Below, piece after piece: positions 12,039 through 24,626 of a DNA stretch of 64,000 nucleotides (position 1 is the first letter of the stretch; every line of letters begins with the position of its first letter). The notes beneath the pieces are model-generated. The model saw only the letters and a list, made by a program, of their open reading frames with translations. It made no database searches and was not told the origin of the DNA. Source of the stretch: Alkaliphilus flagellatus (lineage in GTDB: Bacteria; Bacillota; Clostridia; Peptostreptococcales; Natronincolaceae). The stretch covers positions 92,430-156,429 of the forward strand of contig NZ_JAHLQK010000001.1 of the NCBI RefSeq assembly GCF_018919215.1. Direction: 5' to 3'. Both the position numbers and the translations under genes were made by a program.

Positions 12039-12737
12039 ATGGAAACATATTTAAAATCAACAAAACTATTAGACTTTAACACTTCAGATATTGAACATTT
12101 AATAAAAAAAAGAAAATGGAATTATTTAAACCAGGAAGAAAAGATTGCGGCAGCATATGATTTTGTAAGAAATGAAATTAAATTTGGCTATAATAGTGGA
12201 GATGATATATCTGCTTCTGAAGTCTTAAGAGATGGATATGGGCAATGTAATACAAAGAGTACTTTATTAATGGCATTGCTGAGGGCCTTAGGTATACCAT
12301 GTAGAATTCATGGTTTCTTTATTGATAAAAAGATGCAGAAAGGTGCATTAACAGGAATTACTTATTTATTTGCTCCTAAAAAGATTGTTCATGCTTGGAC
12401 TGAAGTATATTTTAATAATCAGTGGATAGCTTTAGAAGGTGTTATTATTGATGATAAATATCTCAATCAAGTAAGAAATAAGCTTTGTAATTTTAATAAT
12501 GGATATATGGGATATGGTATTTCTGTAAAGGATAAAGAGAAGATAAGTCTTTGTTGGAAAGGAGAAAGCACATATATTCAAAGCTTTTCTATTGTAGAAG
12601 ATTTAGGCTTATTCAATAGTCCTGATGATTTTTTTATCCAATATAACAATACTAATAATAGAATTAAAAGTCTCTTATTTAACTTTTTACGAAAAAGGAT
12701 AAATAGGAAGTTAGACTTAATTAGAAGTGACAGATAA
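12039..12737 (+). CDS. transglutaminase-like cysteine protease domain protein
   Basis: Cys-His core motif GYGQCNTKSTLLMALLRALGIPCRIHGF ... HAWTEVY. Confidence 0.6.
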   Translation: METYLKSTKLLDFNTSDIEHLIKKRKWNYLNQEEKIAAAYDFVRNEIKFGYNSGDDISASEVLRDGYGQCNTKSTLLMALLRALGIPCRIHGFFIDKKMQKGALTGITYLFAPKKIVHAWTEVYFNNQWIALEGVIIDDKYLNQVRNKLCNFNNGYMGYGISVKDKEKISLCWKGESTYIQSFSIVEDLGLFNSPDDFFIQYNNTNNRIKSLLFNFLRKRINRKLDLIRSDR

Positions 12738-13300: not shown

Positions 13301-13731
13301 CTAATAAAGTATAAGTTTCTTAACTACTAAGCGATTTTTAAAGAGGTATAAGGTTAGCAATATTTTAAGCACTCAATTTAAAAGCTTAAGCTTTTGGATC
13401 GAGCGCATCATGAGTCGATGTAATAGCATCAGACAAATTTTTTTATTTTGTTATCCATGTTTCTAACGTACTTTCAGTTATTAGTATAACCATAGCTATC
13501 ATTCTTGACCTTTAAGAAAGGAGAGAGTAATTTGCTAATTGCAAATAAAGAACATGTACTATGAAAATGATAAAAATTAGGATTTGTAGTAAATGGTTGT
13601 TTAAAGCATCTTTTATTTAGATAATAAAGTATTTTCTATAGGTTTAAATGTAGTAATAAAAGCATTAAGCAACTGAAATTTCTAGAATATACGTGAAAAA
13701 ACTAAAATCAATATAATATGGAGTGATATTA

Positions 13732-14898
13732 ATGATTAATTATATACAAGAGGTAAATAAAAATGTAAATATACAAGAAGGAAAGCAGGCAATAGAAAAT
13801 ATATTGTTAAATATATATTTCAAAGAGGGTATTTCTAATAAAGAATTGTCAAGAAATAATCTTTTACCTATACCTGTTATTGTAGCCATAAAAAAAGAAT
13901 TTATTAAATATGGTTTGCTAGTTCAAGACAGTGGAGTAAGGTTAACTAAAGAAGGGTTAAGTTTCATAGAAAATAGGCTAGGCTTTCGTGGAATAAGAAA
14001 GGACCTATATATGAAATTATTAAAGGAAACATGGGAAGAAGAACAAGAGATTATTGAAGTTAAAAGGACATTAAGTGAAGTATTTATAAATCGACCATTG
14101 GCGGATGTTACTATAGATCAGTCAAAATGTACTTTAGATACAGCTGTAAAAAGAGCAGTGTTATGTCTACAAAATTACGCACTAGTAGGTAAAAATATTT
14201 TATGTATAGGGGACGACGATTTAGTAAGTATAGCTCTAGGTTTTTTACTTAAGAAGTTATTTGCTGATATAGAATACTGCAATACAACTATTTCTGTAAT
14301 GGATATTGATAATAGAGTCCTTACCTATATAAAAGATATTGCTGAGAAGGAAAGGCTCCCTATTAAATGTGTATGTTCAGATTTTAGAAAGCCATTATCA
14401 AAGGATTTTACAGAACAATTTGATTGTTTTTTTACTGATCCTCCTTATACTTTGGAGGGAATGAATTTATTTCTTTCAAGAGGGATTGAAGCTTTAAAAA
14501 AACAAAATGGTCTTCCTGTTTTTCTTTCTTATGCCCACAAGTCACCAGATTTTGAATTTGCTATGCAGCAATGCTTCCTAGATATGGGACTTATAGTTTC
14601 TAATGTGATGACTAGGTTCAATACCTATGAGGGGGCAGGAATAATTGGTAATACAGGGCAAATGATAGTTCTTAAAACTACTAGTAAGAGCAAGACATTA
14701 ATGCAAACTTTTTATCAAGGTCCACTTTATACTGGAGAACTAAAAAAAACAGTTCGCTTTTATAGGTGTAAGAGTTGTGGCCAAACTAATAAAGTAGGTC
14801 TTTCAGAGAAGATTAAAACTATAGAAGAACTAAAATCAAAAGGTTGTAATAAATGTAGTAATCAAATATTCAATCTAATTGATAAAAATAAGCTTTAA
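13732..14898 (+). CDS. DUF43/BpsA-like class-I SAM(dcSAM)-fold protein with N-terminal wHTH and C-terminal zinc ribbon (putative aminopropyl- or methyltransferase)
   Basis: N-terminal wHTH-like segment (GISNKELSRNNLLPIPVIVAIKKEFIKYGLL). GDDD loop (NILCIGDDDLVSIALG). A DPPY motif (CFFTDPPYT) about 70 aa later. C-terminal CKSCGQT...CNKCSN. The ATG at 13732 follows a GGAG RBS, and the ORF-track GTG at 13723 is probably not the true start. Confidence 0.45.
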   Translation: MINYIQEVNKNVNIQEGKQAIENILLNIYFKEGISNKELSRNNLLPIPVIVAIKKEFIKYGLLVQDSGVRLTKEGLSFIENRLGFRGIRKDLYMKLLKETWEEEQEIIEVKRTLSEVFINRPLADVTIDQSKCTLDTAVKRAVLCLQNYALVGKNILCIGDDDLVSIALGFLLKKLFADIEYCNTTISVMDIDNRVLTYIKDIAEKERLPIKCVCSDFRKPLSKDFTEQFDCFFTDPPYTLEGMNLFLSRGIEALKKQNGLPVFLSYAHKSPDFEFAMQQCFLDMGLIVSNVMTRFNTYEGAGIIGNTGQMIVLKTTSKSKTLMQTFYQGPLYTGELKKTVRFYRCKSCGQTNKVGLSEKIKTIEELKSKGCNKCSNQIFNLIDKNKL

Positions 14899-15959: not shown

Positions 15960-16640
15960 ATGTATAGAAATTTATTATTGATAGAAGATGAAAAAAGAAT
16001 GAGAGAAATATTAGTGGATTATTTCAAACGTGAAGATTTTACAATATTTGAAGCAGCTAATGGAAGAGAGGCATTAGAGATATTTGATACTAATAATATT
16101 CATTTGGTGATTCTAGATATAATGATACCAGAAATAGATGGATGGTCTGTATGTAAAAGGATTCGAAAGGAATCAGGAGTACCTATTATTATGCTAACTG
16201 CTAGATCTGATGAAGATGACAAGCTTATGGGATACGAGTTAGGGGCAGATGACTATATGACTAAGCCGTTTAGTCCAAGAGTATTAGTTGCAAAATCAAA
16301 AATGCTTCTTAAAAGAGCTGAAGGAAATGTAGTTAATGATAATGGTCTAATTTTATGTACAGATATTGAAGTTAATAAATTATCCCGTACGGTTAAAGTA
16401 GATAATGAGCTAATAGAACTTGCTCCAAAGGAATTTGATTTACTAGTGTATATGATTCAAAATAAAGAAATGGTATTAACAAGGGAGAATATCTTAAATC
16501 ATGTTTGGGGATATGACTACTTCGGAGATTTGCGTACTATTGATACTCATATAAAAAAGCTAAGATACAAACTAAAGGATAAGGCGAAATATATTAATAC
16601 CGTTAATAGAGTAGGCTATAAATTTGAGGTGAACGAATGA
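15960..16640 (+). CDS. OmpR-family response regulator
   Basis: Receiver domain (LLIEDE...DIMIPEIDG...) with winged-helix output (TIDTHIKKLRYKL...VGYKF). Confidence 0.85.
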   Translation: MYRNLLLIEDEKRMREILVDYFKREDFTIFEAANGREALEIFDTNNIHLVILDIMIPEIDGWSVCKRIRKESGVPIIMLTARSDEDDKLMGYELGADDYMTKPFSPRVLVAKSKMLLKRAEGNVVNDNGLILCTDIEVNKLSRTVKVDNELIELAPKEFDLLVYMIQNKEMVLTRENILNHVWGYDYFGDLRTIDTHIKKLRYKLKDKAKYINTVNRVGYKFEVNE

Positions 16641-18580
16641 AAAGAAATAGTATTACCTTTAAGCTTTTTATAATAACAACTATCTTTTTTATATTATTTT
16701 TAATGATTGTAGTAATTAGCCAGTCCATGTTTTTTGAAAAATTTTATATAAATCATAAAATTAGTAAATTGGAAAAAAATTTGGAGGGGTTTGCTAAAAA
16801 ATATTATAAAGAGGGTTGGGACCAAATAACAATAACGAAAAATATTAGTAATTTTATAAATAATAATAATGCTCAAATTGCAATATTAGATGATAAAGCT
16901 ATAACTAGGCATATTCCACTATTTAATTTAATTATTGAAACAGAAGATAAAAATGAAGTAATGGTGCCTTTAAACAATATGATTTTAATGGAGACAATAC
17001 AAAAATTAAACCTTTCAATAGGAGATCCAATCGTAATTAAAGGAGTTTATTCAAATAATGAGCACAATATTATATATCCATCTAGTATTCAAGGTAAGGG
17101 AAATAGTCTGGAAGTATTGGACTCAGTAGGATTAAACATAAAAGAAAACTTAGTGATTGACACTCCTGGAGTTACTGGAATCAGCGAGAGAGAAATACTC
17201 TCAGAAAACAATTCTATCCAAGTATTAAAAAAAACACCAACTAGTTTTGCCGTTAATATCAGTAACCTTAGGCAAGAAATGATCCGGATAGATATGCGAG
17301 AAATTAAAGGGAACATAGTAGAATTAAATTTTCCAACACAGAAGGATTTTATTATGTCATATAGAGAAGATATGTTTTGGTCTGCAATGGATAACTGGTT
17401 TTGGATTTCAAAGAGTGATGATTTTGCCATAGAAAATGAAGAAATAATTAGCTATAAATATAAAAGTCCTATGAATGGAATAGATAATATTGTTATGATA
17501 AAACCTATTTTCGATAAGGGCGAATTAAAGGAAATGGTATTTGCTATGTCTTCCCTACAGCCTGTAGGAGAGGCTATAGGAGTAATGAAGGACTATTATA
17601 TTTATGGATTTTTAGTGGCAATATTAATAATTATTATTTTGTCTTATATTTATTCTAAGCTTATAGCTAATCCCCTAATAAAAATAAATAATACAGCCAT
17701 AAAAATGGCAGAATTAGATTTTTCAGTAGAATGCAATGTTAAATCTAATGACGAAATTGGAAATCTAGCTAATAGTATAAATATATTGGCTTCAAATCTA
17801 AATAAAAATATGAAAACCCTGCAGGATACAAACGAGAAGCTTAGAGTTGAAATAGAAAAAGAACGGACCTTAGAGAGAATGAGAAAAGAATTTGTATCTA
17901 GTGCTTCACATGAATTAAAAACTCCATTAGGAATTATGAGAGGTTTTACGGAAGGACTTAAAGATGAGGTTGCAATTGAGAAAAAGGATTACTATATAGA
18001 TGTTATATTAGAAGAGATAGAAAAAATGGATACCCTTGTATTAGATATGTTAGATTTGTCTAAGCTTGAGTCTAAAGCATATCTATTGGCAGAGGAAAAC
18101 TTTTATATAGATTCACTGATGCAATTGGTGAAAAATAGATTTATCCAACAGTTAAAGGAAAAAGATATTAAAGTTAATTACATGTATAGTGCCGAAGAAA
18201 TTATGGTTAGGGCAGATAAAAAAAGAATAGAGCAGGTTATAACCAATATTATTAGTAACGCCATAAGACATACGAAATTAGAAGGTTTTATTAACATTGG
18301 CATAAGGAAATATAATGAAGATAAAATTTATATAACTGTTGAAAATGAAGGAGATAGGATTCAAGAAGACAAGTTAAATCATATTTGGGATAGATTTTAT
18401 CGTGTGGAGGAATCAAGAGATCGTGAATTTGGAGGAACAGGACTTGGATTATCAATTGTAAAGAATATTTTAGAACTTCATAATAGTGATTATGGTGTGA
18501 AGAATACAGAGAATGGTGTGATGCTGTATTTTACACTAAGATTAGCTGTTGAAAAAAATTATATGAAAGCCGATTTATAG
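16637..18580 (+). CDS. sensor histidine kinase with a large extracytoplasmic domain
   Basis: 2 TM segments flank a roughly 290-aa periplasmic domain. HAMP, HisKA H-box SASHELKTPL, and HATPase N/G boxes (GGTGLGLSIV). Overlaps the RR stop by 4 nt. Confidence 0.85.
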   Translation: MKRNSITFKLFIITTIFFILFLMIVVISQSMFFEKFYINHKISKLEKNLEGFAKKYYKEGWDQITITKNISNFINNNNAQIAILDDKAITRHIPLFNLIIETEDKNEVMVPLNNMILMETIQKLNLSIGDPIVIKGVYSNNEHNIIYPSSIQGKGNSLEVLDSVGLNIKENLVIDTPGVTGISEREILSENNSIQVLKKTPTSFAVNISNLRQEMIRIDMREIKGNIVELNFPTQKDFIMSYREDMFWSAMDNWFWISKSDDFAIENEEIISYKYKSPMNGIDNIVMIKPIFDKGELKEMVFAMSSLQPVGEAIGVMKDYYIYGFLVAILIIIILSYIYSKLIANPLIKINNTAIKMAELDFSVECNVKSNDEIGNLANSINILASNLNKNMKTLQDTNEKLRVEIEKERTLERMRKEFVSSASHELKTPLGIMRGFTEGLKDEVAIEKKDYYIDVILEEIEKMDTLVLDMLDLSKLESKAYLLAEENFYIDSLMQLVKNRFIQQLKEKDIKVNYMYSAEEIMVRADKKRIEQVITNIISNAIRHTKLEGFINIGIRKYNEDKIYITVENEGDRIQEDKLNHIWDRFYRVEESRDREFGGTGLGLSIVKNILELHNSDYGVKNTENGVMLYFTLRLAVEKNYMKADL

Positions 18581-18660
18581 GTATAGGAATTAGAGTCACT
18601 CTATTAGAGTAGGTTTTTTAGCAAAAATCCAAACTATAGAAGAATTACGAGGTGATAGGA

Positions 18661-20394
18661 ATGGAACAATTATTTTCATTTATTCAAAATGAATTGATTT
18701 ATTTTGTTCAAGCAATATCTGAAGTGTTAAAAGTGGACGTACAAATTATAGATTATCAATATAATCGTGTTGCAGGAACAGGATATTGGAAAAACAAAAT
18801 AAATGAAAATATAAAGGACTATGCTTATATTACTAAGAGAGTCTTTAGGACAGGAAAAAATGCAGTTATTGAGAATCCTAGAGAAAATTTAATTTGTAAT
18901 AATTGCAATAAGAAAGAGTTTTGTAAAGAAACAATGGAAATTTCAATTCCTATAAGATTTGACAAAAGAATTATTGGTACTATAGAATGTGTATGTATTA
19001 ATAAAGAACAGAAAGAACATATAGTAAATAATAAAGCCACATATATAGTATTTATTGAACAGATGGCTAAATTATTGGAATCAAGGGTAATTGAAGAACT
19101 GGAGAAAAGAAAGAAACTAAAGGTTTTGGATTTATTAGATAATGTTTTAAATAAACTTAACGAAGGTGTTATAACAATAGATAGTAATCATAATATTGTA
19201 AATGCTAATAATTATGCAAAACGGATATTAAAGATTGACAATCATTCAAGTAATAAGATAAGTATTAAGGAAACTGGAAATATGGTATTGAAACTACAGG
19301 AATATAAAATTGAATATAATAGTAGTACATTTATAGTAGTTGGAGAAAGATATGATGTTAATTATGGCGGTCAAGAAATTAATGAAGTAATTGTGTTTAC
19401 ATCTAAACAGACCCTTAAAGAACAATTTTTAGAATTATCAGGTTCTAAGCATAATATTGAATTAGATAAAATTGTTGGAAATTCAAGTATAGTAAAGGAG
19501 TTAAAAAGAAAAATTAATACTGTTGCCTCATCAGAATCAACAGTATTAATAACAGGTGAGAGTGGAACAGGAAAAGAATTAATAGCAAGAGCTCTTCATA
19601 ATGAAAGCAATCGTTCTAACAAGCCATTTGTTGCTGTCAATTGTGCTGCTATACCGGATACATTATTGGAAAGCGAACTTTTTGGATATAGTAAGGGAGC
19701 ATTTACAGGGGCAAATCCAAAGGGTAAAATTGGGAAAATTGAGTTGGCAGATGGAGGAACATTGTTTTTAGATGAAATTGGTGATATGCCTTTATATATG
19801 CAAGCTAAAATCTTGAGAGTAATTGAAGATAAAAGTATAGTTAAACTTGGAGATATTCAAGAGAAGTTACTTGATATTAGAATTGTAGCGGCTACAAATA
19901 AAAACTTAGAAGAAATGATTAGAGAAAATGTATTTAGAGGAGATTTGTATTACAGGTTAAATGTTATTCCAATAAATATTAAACCATTAAGAGAACGAAA
20001 AGAAGATATTAAAACTTTATTCCTTCATTTTCTAAAAAAATATGGGATTATTTTTGATAAGAAAGTTACAGTAATTTCTGAGGAAATTTGGAAATATTTA
20101 TATACATATGAGTGGCCAGGTAATATACGTGAGTTAGAAAATGTTGCAGAGTATAGTGTAAATATGTTAAATAGCAATGAAATTATTTCTGTTGAACATC
20201 TACCTAATAAGATATTAATTAATAAAAAATCTGACATAGAAATAAATACTAATTTGGATGACGTAGAGCGACAATTGATTAACGAATATTTAAATATCTA
20301 TGGTTTGAGCGTAGAAGGAAAGAAAAGAGTAGCCGAAAAATTAGGTGTAAGTATAGCTACTTTATATAGAAAAATTAAAAAGTATAATATATAG
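18661..20394 (+). CDS. sigma-54-dependent transcriptional activator (sensor domain + PAS + AAA+ + HTH_8)
   Basis: GESGTGKE Walker A, GAFTGA sigma-54 contact motif, and a C-terminal Fis-type HTH (RVAEKLGVSIATLYRKIKK). The ATG at 18661 follows AGGTGATAGGA. Confidence 0.85.
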   Translation: MEQLFSFIQNELIYFVQAISEVLKVDVQIIDYQYNRVAGTGYWKNKINENIKDYAYITKRVFRTGKNAVIENPRENLICNNCNKKEFCKETMEISIPIRFDKRIIGTIECVCINKEQKEHIVNNKATYIVFIEQMAKLLESRVIEELEKRKKLKVLDLLDNVLNKLNEGVITIDSNHNIVNANNYAKRILKIDNHSSNKISIKETGNMVLKLQEYKIEYNSSTFIVVGERYDVNYGGQEINEVIVFTSKQTLKEQFLELSGSKHNIELDKIVGNSSIVKELKRKINTVASSESTVLITGESGTGKELIARALHNESNRSNKPFVAVNCAAIPDTLLESELFGYSKGAFTGANPKGKIGKIELADGGTLFLDEIGDMPLYMQAKILRVIEDKSIVKLGDIQEKLLDIRIVAATNKNLEEMIRENVFRGDLYYRLNVIPINIKPLRERKEDIKTLFLHFLKKYGIIFDKKVTVISEEIWKYLYTYEWPGNIRELENVAEYSVNMLNSNEIISVEHLPNKILINKKSDIEINTNLDDVERQLINEYLNIYGLSVEGKKRVAEKLGVSIATLYRKIKKYNI

Positions 20395-20404
20395 AATAGA
20401 TAAA

Positions 20405-20441
20405 TTATCAAAAATGATAAATTTATCAAAAATGATAAATT
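20405..20441 (+). promoter_or_regulatory. tandem direct repeat (2 x about 18 bp) each containing the palindrome TATCAaaaaTGATA; candidate EBP upstream activating sequence
   Basis: TTATCAAAAATGATAAATT repeats twice, about 140 bp upstream of the -24/-12 element. Confidence 0.45.
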
Positions 20442-20579
20442 GTTAATTACAACAGAAATCATGTATATATGGTATTTTAATAAATAATAATTCTCAATAA
20501 TGATAAAATCTTAAAAATTAGAATGTGCTAATATGGTTTTAAATTAGCATAGAATAAGACTCCATATGAAATTTTATAT

Positions 20580-20596
20580 TTGGCATAATATTTGCT
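20580..20596 (+). promoter_or_regulatory. sigma-54 (-24/-12) promoter TGGCAT-N5-TTGCT
   Basis: The GG to GC spacing matches the TGGCAC-N5-TTGCW consensus exactly. It lies 45 nt upstream of the ATG at 20641, next to an EBP gene. Confidence 0.6.
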
Positions 20597-20640
20597 TATT
20601 AATATTGCGTAACCAATTTTATAAGTGAAGGAGAGATAAT

Positions 20641-21822
20641 ATGCCAGTAAAGCAAGTATTATTATTAGGTAACGAAGATTTATACAAAATATCTAAAGAA
20701 GTTAGATATGAAGAGATTAGAGATGTTAAACACATTATTAAAGATTTACACGATACCTTAATGGATTTTAGAGAAAAATATGGATATGGAAGAGCAATAG
20801 CTGCTCCTCAACTGGGGTATTTTAAAAGAATCATCTACATGAACATTAATGATTGTGAAACCATCTTTATTAATCCTAAATTAGAGTTTTTAGATAATGA
20901 AATGATAGAAGTATGGGATGATTGTATGTCTTTTCCAAATTTGCTCGTGAAAGTAAAGAGGTACAATCATTGCAAAATATACTATAAAGATTTGGATTGG
21001 AATGATAATGTAATAGAAGTAGAAGGAGATATTGCTGAATTATTACAGCATGAATACGATCATTTAAAAGGAGTATTAGCTATTTCAAAGGCAATAGACG
21101 ATCATTCTTTTAGACTTAAAACCGTAGAAACTAAACTGTCAAAAAAAATTGGGATATTAGGTGGAATAAGTCATGAGTCAACTATTAAGTATTATGAGCT
21201 TATATTAAAGAAATATTATGAGCTTAAAGGGGATTATTATTATCCAGAAATAATTATATACAGCTTAGACTTTCAGAAATTTACTGACTTTGAGGATAAT
21301 GGGGATAAAGAGGGCTATATTAAGTATATAATGGAAGGCATGTATTCACTAGAAAATAGTGGGGCAGATTTTATAATTATGTCTGCAAATTCACCACATT
21401 CAGTATATGATGAAGTAAAGAATCTTACTAAACTACCTATGATCAGCATTGTAGAGGCTGTTGGAGAAAAGGCAAAGGAAAAAGGATTGAAAAAGATTTT
21501 GCTGTTAGGTATAAAATATACAATGGAAAGTGGTTTTTATGAAAATTACTTAAATCAGTTCGGAATAGATGTAATTGTTCCATCTGAAGATGAAAGAGTA
21601 TTAATCAATGATATTATTTTTGATGAGTTGGCTATAGGTATATTTCATAAGAATAGCAAAGAAAGGCTTATTAATATTATTAAGAAGTATGATGTAGAAG
21701 GTGTAATATTAGGATGCACAGAATTACCACTAATTATTTCTGAAGCTGATCTTGAAATAGAAGTTTTAAACACTGTAGAACTTCATGTAAATAAAATATT
21801 AAGGTATTCTCTTGGAATGTAA
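20641..21822 (+). CDS. fusion protein: peptide-deformylase-like domain (aa 1-165) + Asp/Glu/hydantoin-racemase-fold domain (aa 168-393)
   Basis: PDF motifs GRAIAAPQLG (I), DDCMSFP (II, Cys retained) and QHEYDHLKG (III, HExxH). Racemase motifs GILGGISHESTIKYY and ILGCTELPL. The first catalytic Cys position reads MSANSPH, with Ala instead of Cys. Confidence 0.7.
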   Translation: MPVKQVLLLGNEDLYKISKEVRYEEIRDVKHIIKDLHDTLMDFREKYGYGRAIAAPQLGYFKRIIYMNINDCETIFINPKLEFLDNEMIEVWDDCMSFPNLLVKVKRYNHCKIYYKDLDWNDNVIEVEGDIAELLQHEYDHLKGVLAISKAIDDHSFRLKTVETKLSKKIGILGGISHESTIKYYELILKKYYELKGDYYYPEIIIYSLDFQKFTDFEDNGDKEGYIKYIMEGMYSLENSGADFIIMSANSPHSVYDEVKNLTKLPMISIVEAVGEKAKEKGLKKILLLGIKYTMESGFYENYLNQFGIDVIVPSEDERVLINDIIFDELAIGIFHKNSKERLINIIKKYDVEGVILGCTELPLIISEADLEIEVLNTVELHVNKILRYSLGM

Positions 21823-22825: not shown

Positions 22826-22947
22826 AATTTAAAGTATTATGCCTGTGTATATTCAAAAGACCTAGATTTCATAAAATGATCATTTTTCTGATATAATATG
22901 TAATAAGTAACTAAATAGCTTTAAGCAAGTTGTATTGGAGGATAGAT

Positions 22948-23616
22948 ATGCAAAAAATTATTATAATAGAGGATACTGAAACCATAAGAGAAGAACTTAA
23001 AATATTTTTATCTAAATATGGTTACGAGGTTGATGCTCCAGATGATTTTAGCAATATAGTTGAGTATATATATAGATCCAATGCTGATCTAATTTTATTA
23101 GATATAAATTTACCTGTTTTTGATGGATATCATATATGTAGAGAAGTTAGAAAAAATTCGGATGTACCAATAATAGTAGTTACAAGTAGAGATAGTGAAA
23201 CAGATGAACTTATGAGTATGAATTTAGGTGCAGATGATTTTATCACGAAACCTTATAACACACAAATACTTTTAGCTCGTATTTCAGCAGTTTTAAAGAG
23301 AACTTCCAAAAGCAATCCTAGTGATGTATTAGAGTACAATGATATAAAGTTAAATCTATTAAATGGTAGTATTATCTATAAAGGAAATACAGAACAATTA
23401 ACTAAGAATGAAATAAAAATACTTTCTTATCTCATAAAGTATAAGGGAACTATAGTATCAAGAGAAGCATTAATGGAACACTTATGGAATTCAGATGTTT
23501 TTATTGATGATAATACATTGTCTGTAAATGTAACAAGATTAAGAAAAACACTTGAAGATATAGGTGTAAAAGATGTAATAGAGACGAGGAGAGGTTTGGG
23601 ATATATAATGCCATGA
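22948..23616 (+). CDS. OmpR-family response regulator, BceR-like
   Basis: Receiver domain with winged helix. Located upstream of a BceS-type kinase and a BceAB-type ABC transporter. The ATG at 22948 follows a GGAGG RBS, so the ORF-track TTG at 22930 is less likely. Confidence 0.8.
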   Translation: MQKIIIIEDTETIREELKIFLSKYGYEVDAPDDFSNIVEYIYRSNADLILLDINLPVFDGYHICREVRKNSDVPIIVVTSRDSETDELMSMNLGADDFITKPYNTQILLARISAVLKRTSKSNPSDVLEYNDIKLNLLNGSIIYKGNTEQLTKNEIKILSYLIKYKGTIVSREALMEHLWNSDVFIDDNTLSVNVTRLRKTLEDIGVKDVIETRRGLGYIMP

Positions 23617-24626
23617 GTATAAAAGAGTATTTAAAAGAAAGATTTTTGTTCATGTTTATAAATTTCATAGGATTTTTTATTTTGGCTTTTGTGCTGGCTA
23701 TACTAGACATAAAAACTATTGTCATATTTTTAATTTTTATTATATGGTTTTTACCTCTAATAATCTATATTAGTATAGAGTTTTTTAAGCATAAAAAATA
23801 TTATAATAATATGGAAGAAACATTACAAAGTCTTGATAAAAAGTATTTATTGCCAGAAATCATGGAAAAACCAGACTTTTTAGAAGGAAAACTTTTTTAC
23901 GATATACTAAAAGTATGTAATAAAGAAATGCATGAGCATGTAAATTATTATAAAAATCTTCAGTCCGAATATAGAGAATATATTGAGACCTGGGTTCATG
24001 AAATTAAAACACCTATTTCATCAAGTATGTTGATTATAGAGAATAATAAAAGCCCTATTATGGATAATATAGGTCAAGAAATAAAGAAAGTAGAAGGGTT
24101 TGTAGAACAGGCATTATACTATTCAAGAAGCAATGATGTTAGTAAAGATTATATAATAAAGAAGTTTGATTTATCAACAGCTGTAAATAATGCTATTAGA
24201 AGAAATTCTAAGGATTTTATAGGTAAAAGGATAAATTTACAATTAGACGAAATAGATGCTGTTGTATATAGTGATATAAAGTGGGTACAATTTATACTCA
24301 ATCAAATCATAAGTAATTCAATCAAGTATATTAAGCCTAAAGAAGGTAATATAAGAATATATTCAACCAGCAATAAAAATAATGTAGTACTTACAATTCA
24401 AGATAATGGAATAGGAATTTCAGAGAAGGATATTAATAGAGTTTTTGAAAAAGGCTTTACAGGAGAGCATGGAAGAAAATACAATGCATCTACAGGTATG
24501 GGATTATATCTTTGCAGAAAACTTTGTGACAAGCTAGGTTTAGAAATAAATATTGCATCTGAATTAGGAGTAGGAACAAAGGTTAATATAATATTTCCGT
24601 TAAGTAAGTTTAATTTAGGGATTTGA
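23613..24626 (+). CDS. intramembrane-sensing histidine kinase, BceS-like
   Basis: Two TM helices with almost no extracellular loop. H-box region ETWVHEIKTPI and HATPase (GIGISEKD...GMGLYLC). Overlaps the RR stop. Confidence 0.8.
   Translation: MSIKEYLKERFLFMFINFIGFFILAFVLAILDIKTIVIFLIFIIWFLPLIIYISIEFFKHKKYYNNMEETLQSLDKKYLLPEIMEKPDFLEGKLFYDILKVCNKEMHEHVNYYKNLQSEYREYIETWVHEIKTPISSSMLIIENNKSPIMDNIGQEIKKVEGFVEQALYYSRSNDVSKDYIIKKFDLSTAVNNAIRRNSKDFIGKRINLQLDEIDAVVYSDIKWVQFILNQIISNSIKYIKPKEGNIRIYSTSNKNNVVLTIQDNGIGISEKDINRVFEKGFTGEHGRKYNASTGMGLYLCRKLCDKLGLEINIASELGVGTKVNIIFPLSKFNLGI

Follow-up and report, generated by a model that had tools for sequence, protein, structure and literature searches.

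A deformylase-like and racemase-like fusion gene of Alkaliphilus flagellatus and the linkage of two enzyme subfamilies with altered catalytic motifs

What might be the function of a protein that joins the fold of peptide deformylase (PDF) to that of the aspartate/glutamate racemases, and that departs from the textbook motifs of both? This question is raised by a gene of Alkaliphilus flagellatus lying in the window analysed here, which is a 64,000-nucleotide (nt) stretch of contig NZ_JAHLQK010000001.1 (assembly GCF_018919215.1, positions 92,430 to 156,429 of the forward strand) with a G+C content of approximately 30%. A preliminary description of the sequence had pointed out that the EGC box of the PDF half reads DDC and that an alanine stands in the place of the first catalytic cysteine of the racemase half. 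These deviations proved to be real, but they are not private oddities of the protein; rather, they are conserved marks of two large subfamilies, and the motif pattern cannot be ascribed to chance because it is conserved in 16 fusions and, for each half, in its best homologues (240 in total). Gene fusion, gene adjacency and common fusion partners link these two subfamilies to one another, and the account that we tentatively prefer is that of an inducible enzyme with two activities directed at a small N-acyl amino-acid-type compound. The anatomy of the gene is as follows.

20629-20633, plus strand: AGGAG ribosome-binding site, 7 nt 5' of the ATG of the fusion open reading frame (ORF)
20641-21822, plus strand: fusion ORF with a PDF-like N-half and an aspartate/glutamate-racemase-fold C-half, 393 residues plus stop
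20641-21135, plus strand: PDF-like domain of the "GR..AAPQ / WDDC / QHEYDH" subfamily, residues 1-165
21118-21141, plus strand: interdomain linker, approximately residues 160-167
21142-21819, plus strand: racemase-fold domain of the PH1733-like "AANSPH / GCTELP" subfamily, residues 168-393

Both halves are recognised by Pfam in the 393-residue protein, as Pep_deformylase (residues 4-152, E 8.6e-36) and as Asp_Glu_race (residues 173-385, E 2.3e-34), and an AlphaFold2 (AF2) model predicts each domain with confidence (pLDDT 93.1), with a drop to 69 across residues 161-170 of the linker. Full-length homologues of the fusion were found at 45-96% identity, and the complete protein of 393/394 residues is annotated in Alkaliphilus sp. 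B6464 and in Gottschalkia purinilytica. The NCBI record from A. flagellatus MSJ-5 (P0011, a 228-residue "amino acid racemase") is identical to the C-half and begins at an internal CTG codon at 21136, within the linker and without a ribosome-binding site; the public annotation consequently omits the PDF-like part of an ORF that is continuous over 393 residues.

The departures of the N-half from the canonical enzyme are concentrated in three places.

20788-20811, plus strand: motif I variant GRAIAAPQ, residues 50-57, mapped to Escherichia coli Def by MAFFT
20914-20937, plus strand: motif II variant WDDCMSFP, residues 92-99, with Cys95 as putative metal ligand (DDCMS at residues 93-97, nt 20917-20931)
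21028-21072, plus strand: motif III region GDIAELLQHEYDHLKG, residues 130-144 (QHEYDHLKG at residues 136-144, nt 21046-21072)

The PDF half was aligned by HMMER to solved PDFs, where wDDCmsfp falls upon eEGClsfp and qHEyDHl upon qHEfDHl, and by MAFFT to verified E. coli Def. In the latter alignment the catalytic set is kept, with Q50 at Q57, C90 at C95 and H132, E133 and H136 at H137, E138 and H141, and L91 corresponds to M96. The metal ligands Cys95, His137 and His141 are thus intact, as had been claimed, and Glu138 is the predicted catalytic residue. Around this core, motif I is altered by I44 to R51 and G45 to A52, motif II by E88 to D93 and G89 to D94, and further changes bring R97 to L102, L125 to D130, I128 to E133 and C129 to L134, and motif I is preceded by a five-residue insertion. 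The GRAIAAPQ motif with Arg51 and Ala52, the residues Asp130 and Glu133 and the insertion had been missed in the preliminary description. Five of the substituted residues (R51, D93, D94, D130 and E133) carry charged side chains, and at the positions that we take to line the S1' pocket the mapping reads I44R, L125D and I128E, so that, by this sequence mapping, a hydrophobic S1' pocket would not be preserved. This pocket is normally the most conserved, hydrophobic methionine pocket of PDFs (bioRxiv 10.1101/2025.09.18.677056), and canonical members carry a motif I of the form G-phi-G-phi-AAxQ and the motif II EGCLS (PMC5591237, PMC12690207). The protein therefore possesses the fold, the Pfam domain, the metal ligands, the catalytic glutamate and the oxyanion glutamine of a PDF, but GRAIAAPQ and DDCMS in place of the canonical motifs. 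Against the NCBIfam equivalog TIGR00079 it scores 82.4 bits (cut-off 103.95), and the remaining listed PDF models are likewise below their cut-offs. With its catalytic and ligand residues invariant and its charged substitutions at pocket positions of the E. coli enzyme, the N-half looks like a PDF-fold enzyme with a remodelled pocket and not like a dead one, in keeping with what the preliminary description had suggested from the DDC box.

These features recur far beyond Alkaliphilus. The best 120 homologues found for the N-half stand alone, with lengths of 158-221 residues and identities of 55-76%; QHExDH occurs in them without exception, xDDC in 119 and GRAIA[AS]PQ in 116. Across an alignment of 16 fusion proteins (46-96% identity), R51, Q57, W92, D93, C95, E133, H137, E138 and H141 are invariant in the N-half, as are L134, Q136 and D140. 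A pattern scan with one genome per species revealed at least 589 stretches coding for a PDF-like relative of the DDC type, spanning Clostridia, Desulfobacterales, Ignavibacteria, Bacteroidales, Planctomycetes and Asgard archaea (P0140, P0167, L023, L042, L053 and L069 for the last). Archaea, Asgard archaea included, are not known to formylate the initiator methionine or to start translation with N-formylmethionine (fMet). A second subtype of the partner, with GR..AAPQ, WD[ST]C and QHE[IL]DH, is found for example in the fusion P0020; what stays constant in the partner is thus Arg51, Trp92-Asp93 and the catalytic set.

In the C-half two motifs are decisive.

21379-21399, plus strand: MSANSPH, residues 247-253, with Ala249 (codon 21385-21387) at the position of the first catalytic cysteine
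21706-21732, plus strand: ILGCTELPL, residues 356-364, with Cys359 (codon 21715-21717) as second catalytic cysteine

All four motifs first described, DDCMS, QHEYDHLKG, MSANSPH and ILGCTELPL, stand at the residues given for them, as seen in the ORF translation and in the HMMER and MAFFT alignments; the range 20890-21720 first assigned to them covers the codon of Cys359, and ILGCTELPL extends 12 nt beyond it. A MAFFT alignment of the C-half with verified PhAspR (1JFL), PH1733 (2ZSK), YgeA (5ELL) and 3OJC is free of gaps in the region of the first motif, which reads FIIMSANSPH in the query, LIAFAANTPH in PH1733, GIVLCTNTMH in YgeA and FIIMPCNTAH in PhAspR. Ala249 is consequently aligned to Cys82 of PhAspR, Thr83 of YgeA and the alanine of PH1733, and Cys359 to Cys194 of PhAspR. 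That another cysteine or threonine might align at the first position, which had been named as the main uncertainty, was not borne out, and a serine was likewise rejected as a candidate, given the ungapped alignment and the fact that Ser248 is replaced by alanine in most relatives.

The alanine is well conserved. Among the 120 best homologues of the C-half, 119 carry ANSPH or ANSAH (the remaining one is without a detectable motif) and 111 carry GCTE; in the 16 fusions A249, N250, S251, C359 and the whole GCTELPL loop are invariant. Among sampled representatives at 50% identity, the catalytic pair is Ala/Cys in 36, Ser/Cys in 28, Thr/Cys in 22 and Cys/Cys in 8, that is, 86 proteins with Ala, Ser or Thr plus Cys versus 8 with two cysteines. 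Alanine at the first catalytic position is normal in this clade, not a deviation. The protein lies within the PF01177 superfamily fold and scores above the cut-off of the TIGR00035 family model, it lacks the first and has the second cysteine (in GCTE) of a two-thiol racemase, and it shows the alanine-first, cysteine-second pattern AAN[ST]PH / GCTELP of the PH1733-like subfamily; from the YgeA/EcL-DER group it is set apart by a score of 150.8 with the equivalog NF007569 (cut-off 417) and by Ala at the position of Thr. PH1733 (2ZSK) is the top hit among solved structures, and fold comparison gave values of 30.9 for 3OJC, 30.5 for PH1733 and 29.4 for PhAspR, with 18.2 for glutamate racemase, 16.0 for hydantoin racemase, 15.2 for arylmalonate decarboxylase (AMDase) and 14.2 for maleate isomerase. 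Amino-acid-binding motifs shared with YgeA (GGxSxEST, SxDF, YTME and GCTE) are kept, and Glu218 and Tyr226 are invariant in the C-half family but absent from YgeA and PhAspR.

The premise that a two-base racemase needs both thiols, from which the preliminary description had argued toward other chemistry, does not hold in this clade, because both YgeA, with threonine and cysteine, and "RacX", with alanine and cysteine, are active. With its Thr83/Cys197 pair, the racemase YgeA/EcL-DER of E. coli is active and biased from L to D, and the Flavobacteriales enzyme "RacX" (Ala79/Cys193) racemises 15 amino acids in both directions, the bias being merely shifted in its A79C variant (PMC12838360).

The linkage of the two subfamilies constitutes the second line of evidence. 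Fusions of PDF-like and racemase-like proteins form approximately 20 clusters, including Alkaliphilus, Gottschalkia and Tissierella, with the fused gene in Tissierella simiarum (L013). Elsewhere the two genes abut or overlap, as in a Firmicutes metagenome-assembled genome (MAG; L011), in Clostridium aromativorans (L048), in a Bacillota MAG (L070) and in four metagenome contigs (L093, L103, L111 and L112), or they stand one gene apart, as in L096, L102, L108 and an Asgard MAG (L010). A PDF-like gene is upstream of, or fused to, the racemase-like gene in 8 of 29 close AANSPH loci, many of which lie on short contigs. The subfamilies also share partners: further DDC-type PDF-like proteins are fused with a GNAT domain (P0278) or a VOC/glyoxalase domain (P0264), an AANSPH racemase-like protein is fused with GNAT (P0098), and related racemase-like proteins are fused with Acetyltransf_3 (P0337, P0299) or VOC (P0364). 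The VOC domains of the two kinds of fusion are 28% identical (E 7e-5). In L003, a GNAT gene two genes 5' of the fusion gene, past a LysR gene, shows homology to the GNATs that are fused to racemase-like proteins (E 6e-21), and in L111 a major facilitator superfamily (MFS) transporter gene lies 3' of the pair. Fusion, adjacency and the shared GNAT and VOC partners speak for a functional linkage between the two subfamilies. Alanine at the first position was already described for PH1733 in 2008-2009; the novelty lies in documenting, by Rosetta-stone fusions and synteny, that a distinct PDF-like subfamily is linked to the PH1733-like proteins. A search of the literature for the PDF-racemase fusion and for the DDC motif found no paper describing either. 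A conserved operon partner was considered as a guide to the substrate and rejected, as the fusion loci are monocistronic and their neighbours vary; a terminator scan 3' of the fusion gene found none.

Regulation of the fusion gene offers a further indication of function, and the elements concerned lie directly 5' of it.

18652-20394, plus strand: sigma-54 enhancer-binding protein, a PrdR-like paralogue (Pfam Sigma54_activat, HTH_8), directly 5' of the fusion gene
20403-20517, plus strand: three repeats AATT[AC]TCAA[AT]AATGATAAA that contain the palindrome TTATCA-N4-TGATAA, candidate activator binding sites
20581-20596, plus strand: sigma-54 (-24/-12) promoter TGGCATAATATTTGCT, its 3' end 44-45 nt before the ATG

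The promoter is the single match to TGGCAY-N5-TTGCW in the window, where 0.12 would be expected by chance, and it is kept at the same position 5' of the fusion gene in Gottschalkia (L001) and in Tissierella (L013). Like repeats precede the fusion gene in both of these loci, and the repeats may well be binding sites for the activator. Orthologues of the activator gene also lie 5' of the fusion gene in both, that of Tissierella being 81% identical, and the product of 18652-20394 is presumed to activate the fusion gene. Its best match, over nearly the whole length, is NCBIfam TF_PrdR at 364 bits, which does not reach the cut-off of 795. Its N-terminal region is rich in cysteine (CNNCNKKEFC...ECVC), with no confident Pfam domain and a weak match to GAF_2, and is probably the sensor of an inducer. 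Sigma-54 control was rejected as a general trait of the family, since the promoter is confined to the fusion loci of Alkaliphilus, Gottschalkia and Tissierella; it is absent 5' of standalone Clostridium genes near a homologous activator. A study of the Clostridiales sigma-54 regulon makes no mention of deformylases. Other lineages have MocR-type (L048, L070) or LysR-type (L003) regulators. Dedicated regulators of the sigma-54, LysR and MocR kinds are a signature of a substrate-induced, amino-acid-related function that is not housekeeping.

Taken together, these data allow a model to be proposed, which is our leading explanation although we hold it with somewhat less than even confidence: the gene would encode an inducible bifunctional enzyme, composed of a PDF-fold metallo-amidohydrolase and a one-thiol racemase or epimerase, by which a small N-formyl or N-acyl amino-acid-type compound is both deacylated and stereo-inverted. 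In the N-half, Cys95, His137 and His141 would hold the metal with Glu138 as general base, and Gln57 and the backbone NH of Met96 would form the oxyanion hole. The hydrophobic S1' methionine pocket and the strand that binds the peptide backbone would be rebuilt with the charged residues Arg51, Asp93, Asp94, Asp130 and Glu133, such that the enzyme would not process nascent fMet-proteins but would act on a very short peptide or on a small N-acyl amino acid of polar or charged character, stripping it of a formyl or other small acyl group. The C-half, which does not depend on pyridoxal 5'-phosphate (PLP) and belongs to the PH1733/YgeA clade, would use Cys359 as its sole thiol base, with water or the substrate presumably taking this part on the opposite face, at Ala249, and may racemise or epimerise the alpha-carbon of the same amino-acid-type metabolite, be it the substrate or the product of the N-half. 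The sigma-54 promoter would be switched on by the adjacent PrdR-like activator, an arrangement typical of the amino-acid catabolic genes of Clostridia. The activity of each half, the class of substrate and the coupling of the two reactions are what we infer here, and we do so because neither half varies at its catalytic and ligand residues in the 16 fusions or in the standalone families, because the subfamilies are fused or adjacent and have GNAT and VOC partners in common, because the nearest characterised relatives of the C-half, with Thr/Cys and Ala/Cys pairs, are active amino-acid racemases, because PDF-like members occur in Asgard archaea, where translation is not known to start with fMet, and because pocket positions map to charged residues and dedicated regulators are present.

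Several points weigh against this model. The designation of I44, L125 and I128 of E. coli Def as pocket positions depends upon a residue list of the PDF structural literature that we assume to be correct. The pTM of the AF2 model is 0.60, and the orientation of the domains is therefore undefined, so that no channel or shared site can be claimed from it. Seen from the PDF side, a racemase-like gene lies within 8 kb in only 3 of the 80 best genome loci. A Pfam census of the 149 immediate neighbours of DDC-type genes returned 181 families with none dominant, and BLAST clustering of the ORFs within 4 kb of 80 loci placed no family in more than 8 of them; the absence of a dominant neighbour family argues for a role of the PDF-like enzyme that does not require the racemase. 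Finally, according to Kita et al. (2009, as cited in PMC12838360), PH1733, in which alanine likewise replaces Cys82, racemises neither enantiomer of Asp or of Glu, and non-racemase chemistry of the C-half therefore keeps some standing.

Among the alternatives, the one that survives best, although we consider it unlikely, is that the N-half is an accessory deformylase of the type 3 kind acting on N-formyl-Met proteins or peptides, that the C-half is an independent YgeA/RacX-like racemase, and that fusion serves co-regulation only. The complete catalytic set upon a PDF fold would suit such an enzyme, as would the fact that most DDC-type PDF-like genes are standalone, and a functional def-fmt fusion demonstrates that PDFs tolerate fusion. 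The defining trait of type 3 PDFs in the Giglione/Meinnel classification, which occur in Archaea and many unicellular organisms and are without a solved structure, is that motifs I and II carry substitutions, and the query resembles their description in having both kinds of substitution and archaeal members. Accessory PDFs are moreover common, and exact motif conservation is not needed for activity (PMC12690207). However, the glycine of motif II is lost and three hydrophobic pocket positions have become invariant or nearly invariant charged residues, the score is below every NCBIfam PDF cut-off, equivalogs included, and the sigma-54, MocR or LysR type of inducible control is not that of a housekeeping gene. 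In addition, the family reaches Asgard archaea, whose initiator methionine is not known to be formylated, and fusion or adjacency of these two subfamilies is seen in several bacterial lineages, with a single gene between them in an Asgard MAG.

Less probable still is the reading of the preliminary description, in which the C-half is not a racemase but performs one-sided chemistry, for example an AMDase-like decarboxylation-protonation, a cis-trans or other isomerisation, or hydrolysis. The invariance of alanine at the position of the first base fits such chemistry, as do the family-invariant Glu218 and Tyr226 that set the C-half apart from YgeA and PhAspR. AMDase, too, is without the first cysteine (Gly74/Cys188). 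The reported inactivity of PH1733 as an Asp/Glu racemase, as cited in PMC12838360, counts on the same side. However, "RacX" racemises 15 amino acids both ways with an alanine at this very position, YgeA is active with a threonine (PMC12838360), and the amino-acid-binding motifs that YgeA shares are kept; an AMDase-like role in particular appears to be unsupported. That one or both halves are pseudoenzymes, serving as an inert ligand-binding, regulatory or scaffolding module, is very improbable: type 3 PDFs often show weak or no activity in vitro and PH1733 was inactive in the assays tried, as cited in PMC12838360, but the metal ligands, the general base, the oxyanion residues, Cys359 and the GCTELP loop are strictly conserved across a wide phylogenetic distance, which is hard to explain without catalysis.

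The bifunctional model may be placed among known systems. The nearest solved relative of the C-half, PH1733 of Pyrococcus horikoshii (PDB 2ZSK; Kita et al., 2009, Proteins 74:240), is a standalone archaeal protein of 226 residues with no PDF-like domain, and has AANTPH where the query has ANSPH. E. coli YgeA/EcL-DER (PDB 5ELL, 5HRA), a characterised L-to-D-biased racemase of broad specificity (homoserine in vivo), and Yersinia pestis 3OJC are also standalone, with Thr83 at the place of the alanine. "RacX" of Halocola ammonii (PMC12838360), from the same superfamily clade and with the same Ala/Cys pair, racemises both ways with one thiol; it is standalone and broad-spectrum with a preference for lysine, and is likened here by its catalytic pair. 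PhAspR (1JFL) and MurI share the fold and the aligned second catalytic cysteine, but they employ a two-thiol mechanism (Cys82/Cys194), and the query is 28% identical to PhAspR. On the other side, E. coli Def (type 1B) has the same fold, metal ligands, catalytic glutamate and oxyanion glutamine as the N-half, which differs from it in the altered motifs I and II, in Asp130 and Glu133 at Leu125 and Ile128, in the lack of a long C-terminal helix and in the fusion to a racemase fold.

A broader proposal, to which we give little credence at present, is that of a conserved two-enzyme module, present in bacteria and at least one Asgard archaeon and sometimes joined with GNAT or VOC domains, whose product would be usable L-amino acids, made from N-formyl or N-acyl amino acids or, by way of an N-acyl intermediate, from D-amino acids. 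It would be a counterpart, with a PDF fold and without need of PLP, to the N-succinyl-amino-acid racemase/deacylase pathway. That route reportedly converts D- to L-amino acids. The logic of the proposed module (N-acyl group, racemase, deacylase and GNAT) would be the same, and the GNAT fusions and neighbours match it; the folds are entirely different (an enolase-superfamily racemase and an M20 hydrolase), so the analogy would be functional only. If correct, the module would supply archaeal "peptide deformylases" and PH1733 alike with a function. Both are long-standing orphans: the "aspartate racemase homologues" of the PH1733 type despite a crystal structure available from 2008 onward, and the altered-motif PDF homologues of Archaea because the initiator methionine is not known to be formylated there. 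The linkage thus offers a testable hypothesis, namely deacylation with stereo-inversion of a small N-acyl amino acid, and the fusion, a single sigma-54-inducible polypeptide of an Alkaliphilus that can be cultivated, would be a handy model for it. The default names "peptide deformylase" and "aspartate racemase" are unsuited to these proteins.

Several minor observations were made at related loci. The Promethearchaeota MAG GCA_048940565.1 (L010:4053-9643) carries on one strand, in this order, genes for a PDF-like protein, a homologue of LarA-type (nickel-pincer) racemases, a PH1733-like protein and two CapK/AMP-ligase-like proteins. At L093:6645-11523, downstream of the pair and on its strand, lie genes resembling, by a look at their sequences, those for adenylosuccinate lyase, serine hydroxymethyltransferase and FolD, a row that may reflect a link to one-carbon or formate metabolism or may be coincidence. 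A PDF-like protein of an EEC type is fused to a GDSL hydrolase in P0386. Weakly recurrent neighbours of DDC-type genes are Cys/Met PLP enzymes (4), tRNA_edit (3) and CN_hydrolase (3); methionine gamma-lyase-like enzymes of the first kind adjoin standalone DDC-type genes at L038:4271-5437, L068:8655-9812 and L082:935-2131, and the three such neighbours traced by BLAST belong to two related Desulfobacteraceae MAGs and one Anaerolineales MAG. In the window itself, a transglutaminase-core gene (12039-12737) and a BpsA_C (branched-chain polyamine synthase-like) gene (13723-14898) lie upstream of the fusion gene, and OmpR-type two-component systems flank the locus on both sides (15960-18580 and 22930-24626); none of these is linked to the findings on the fusion.

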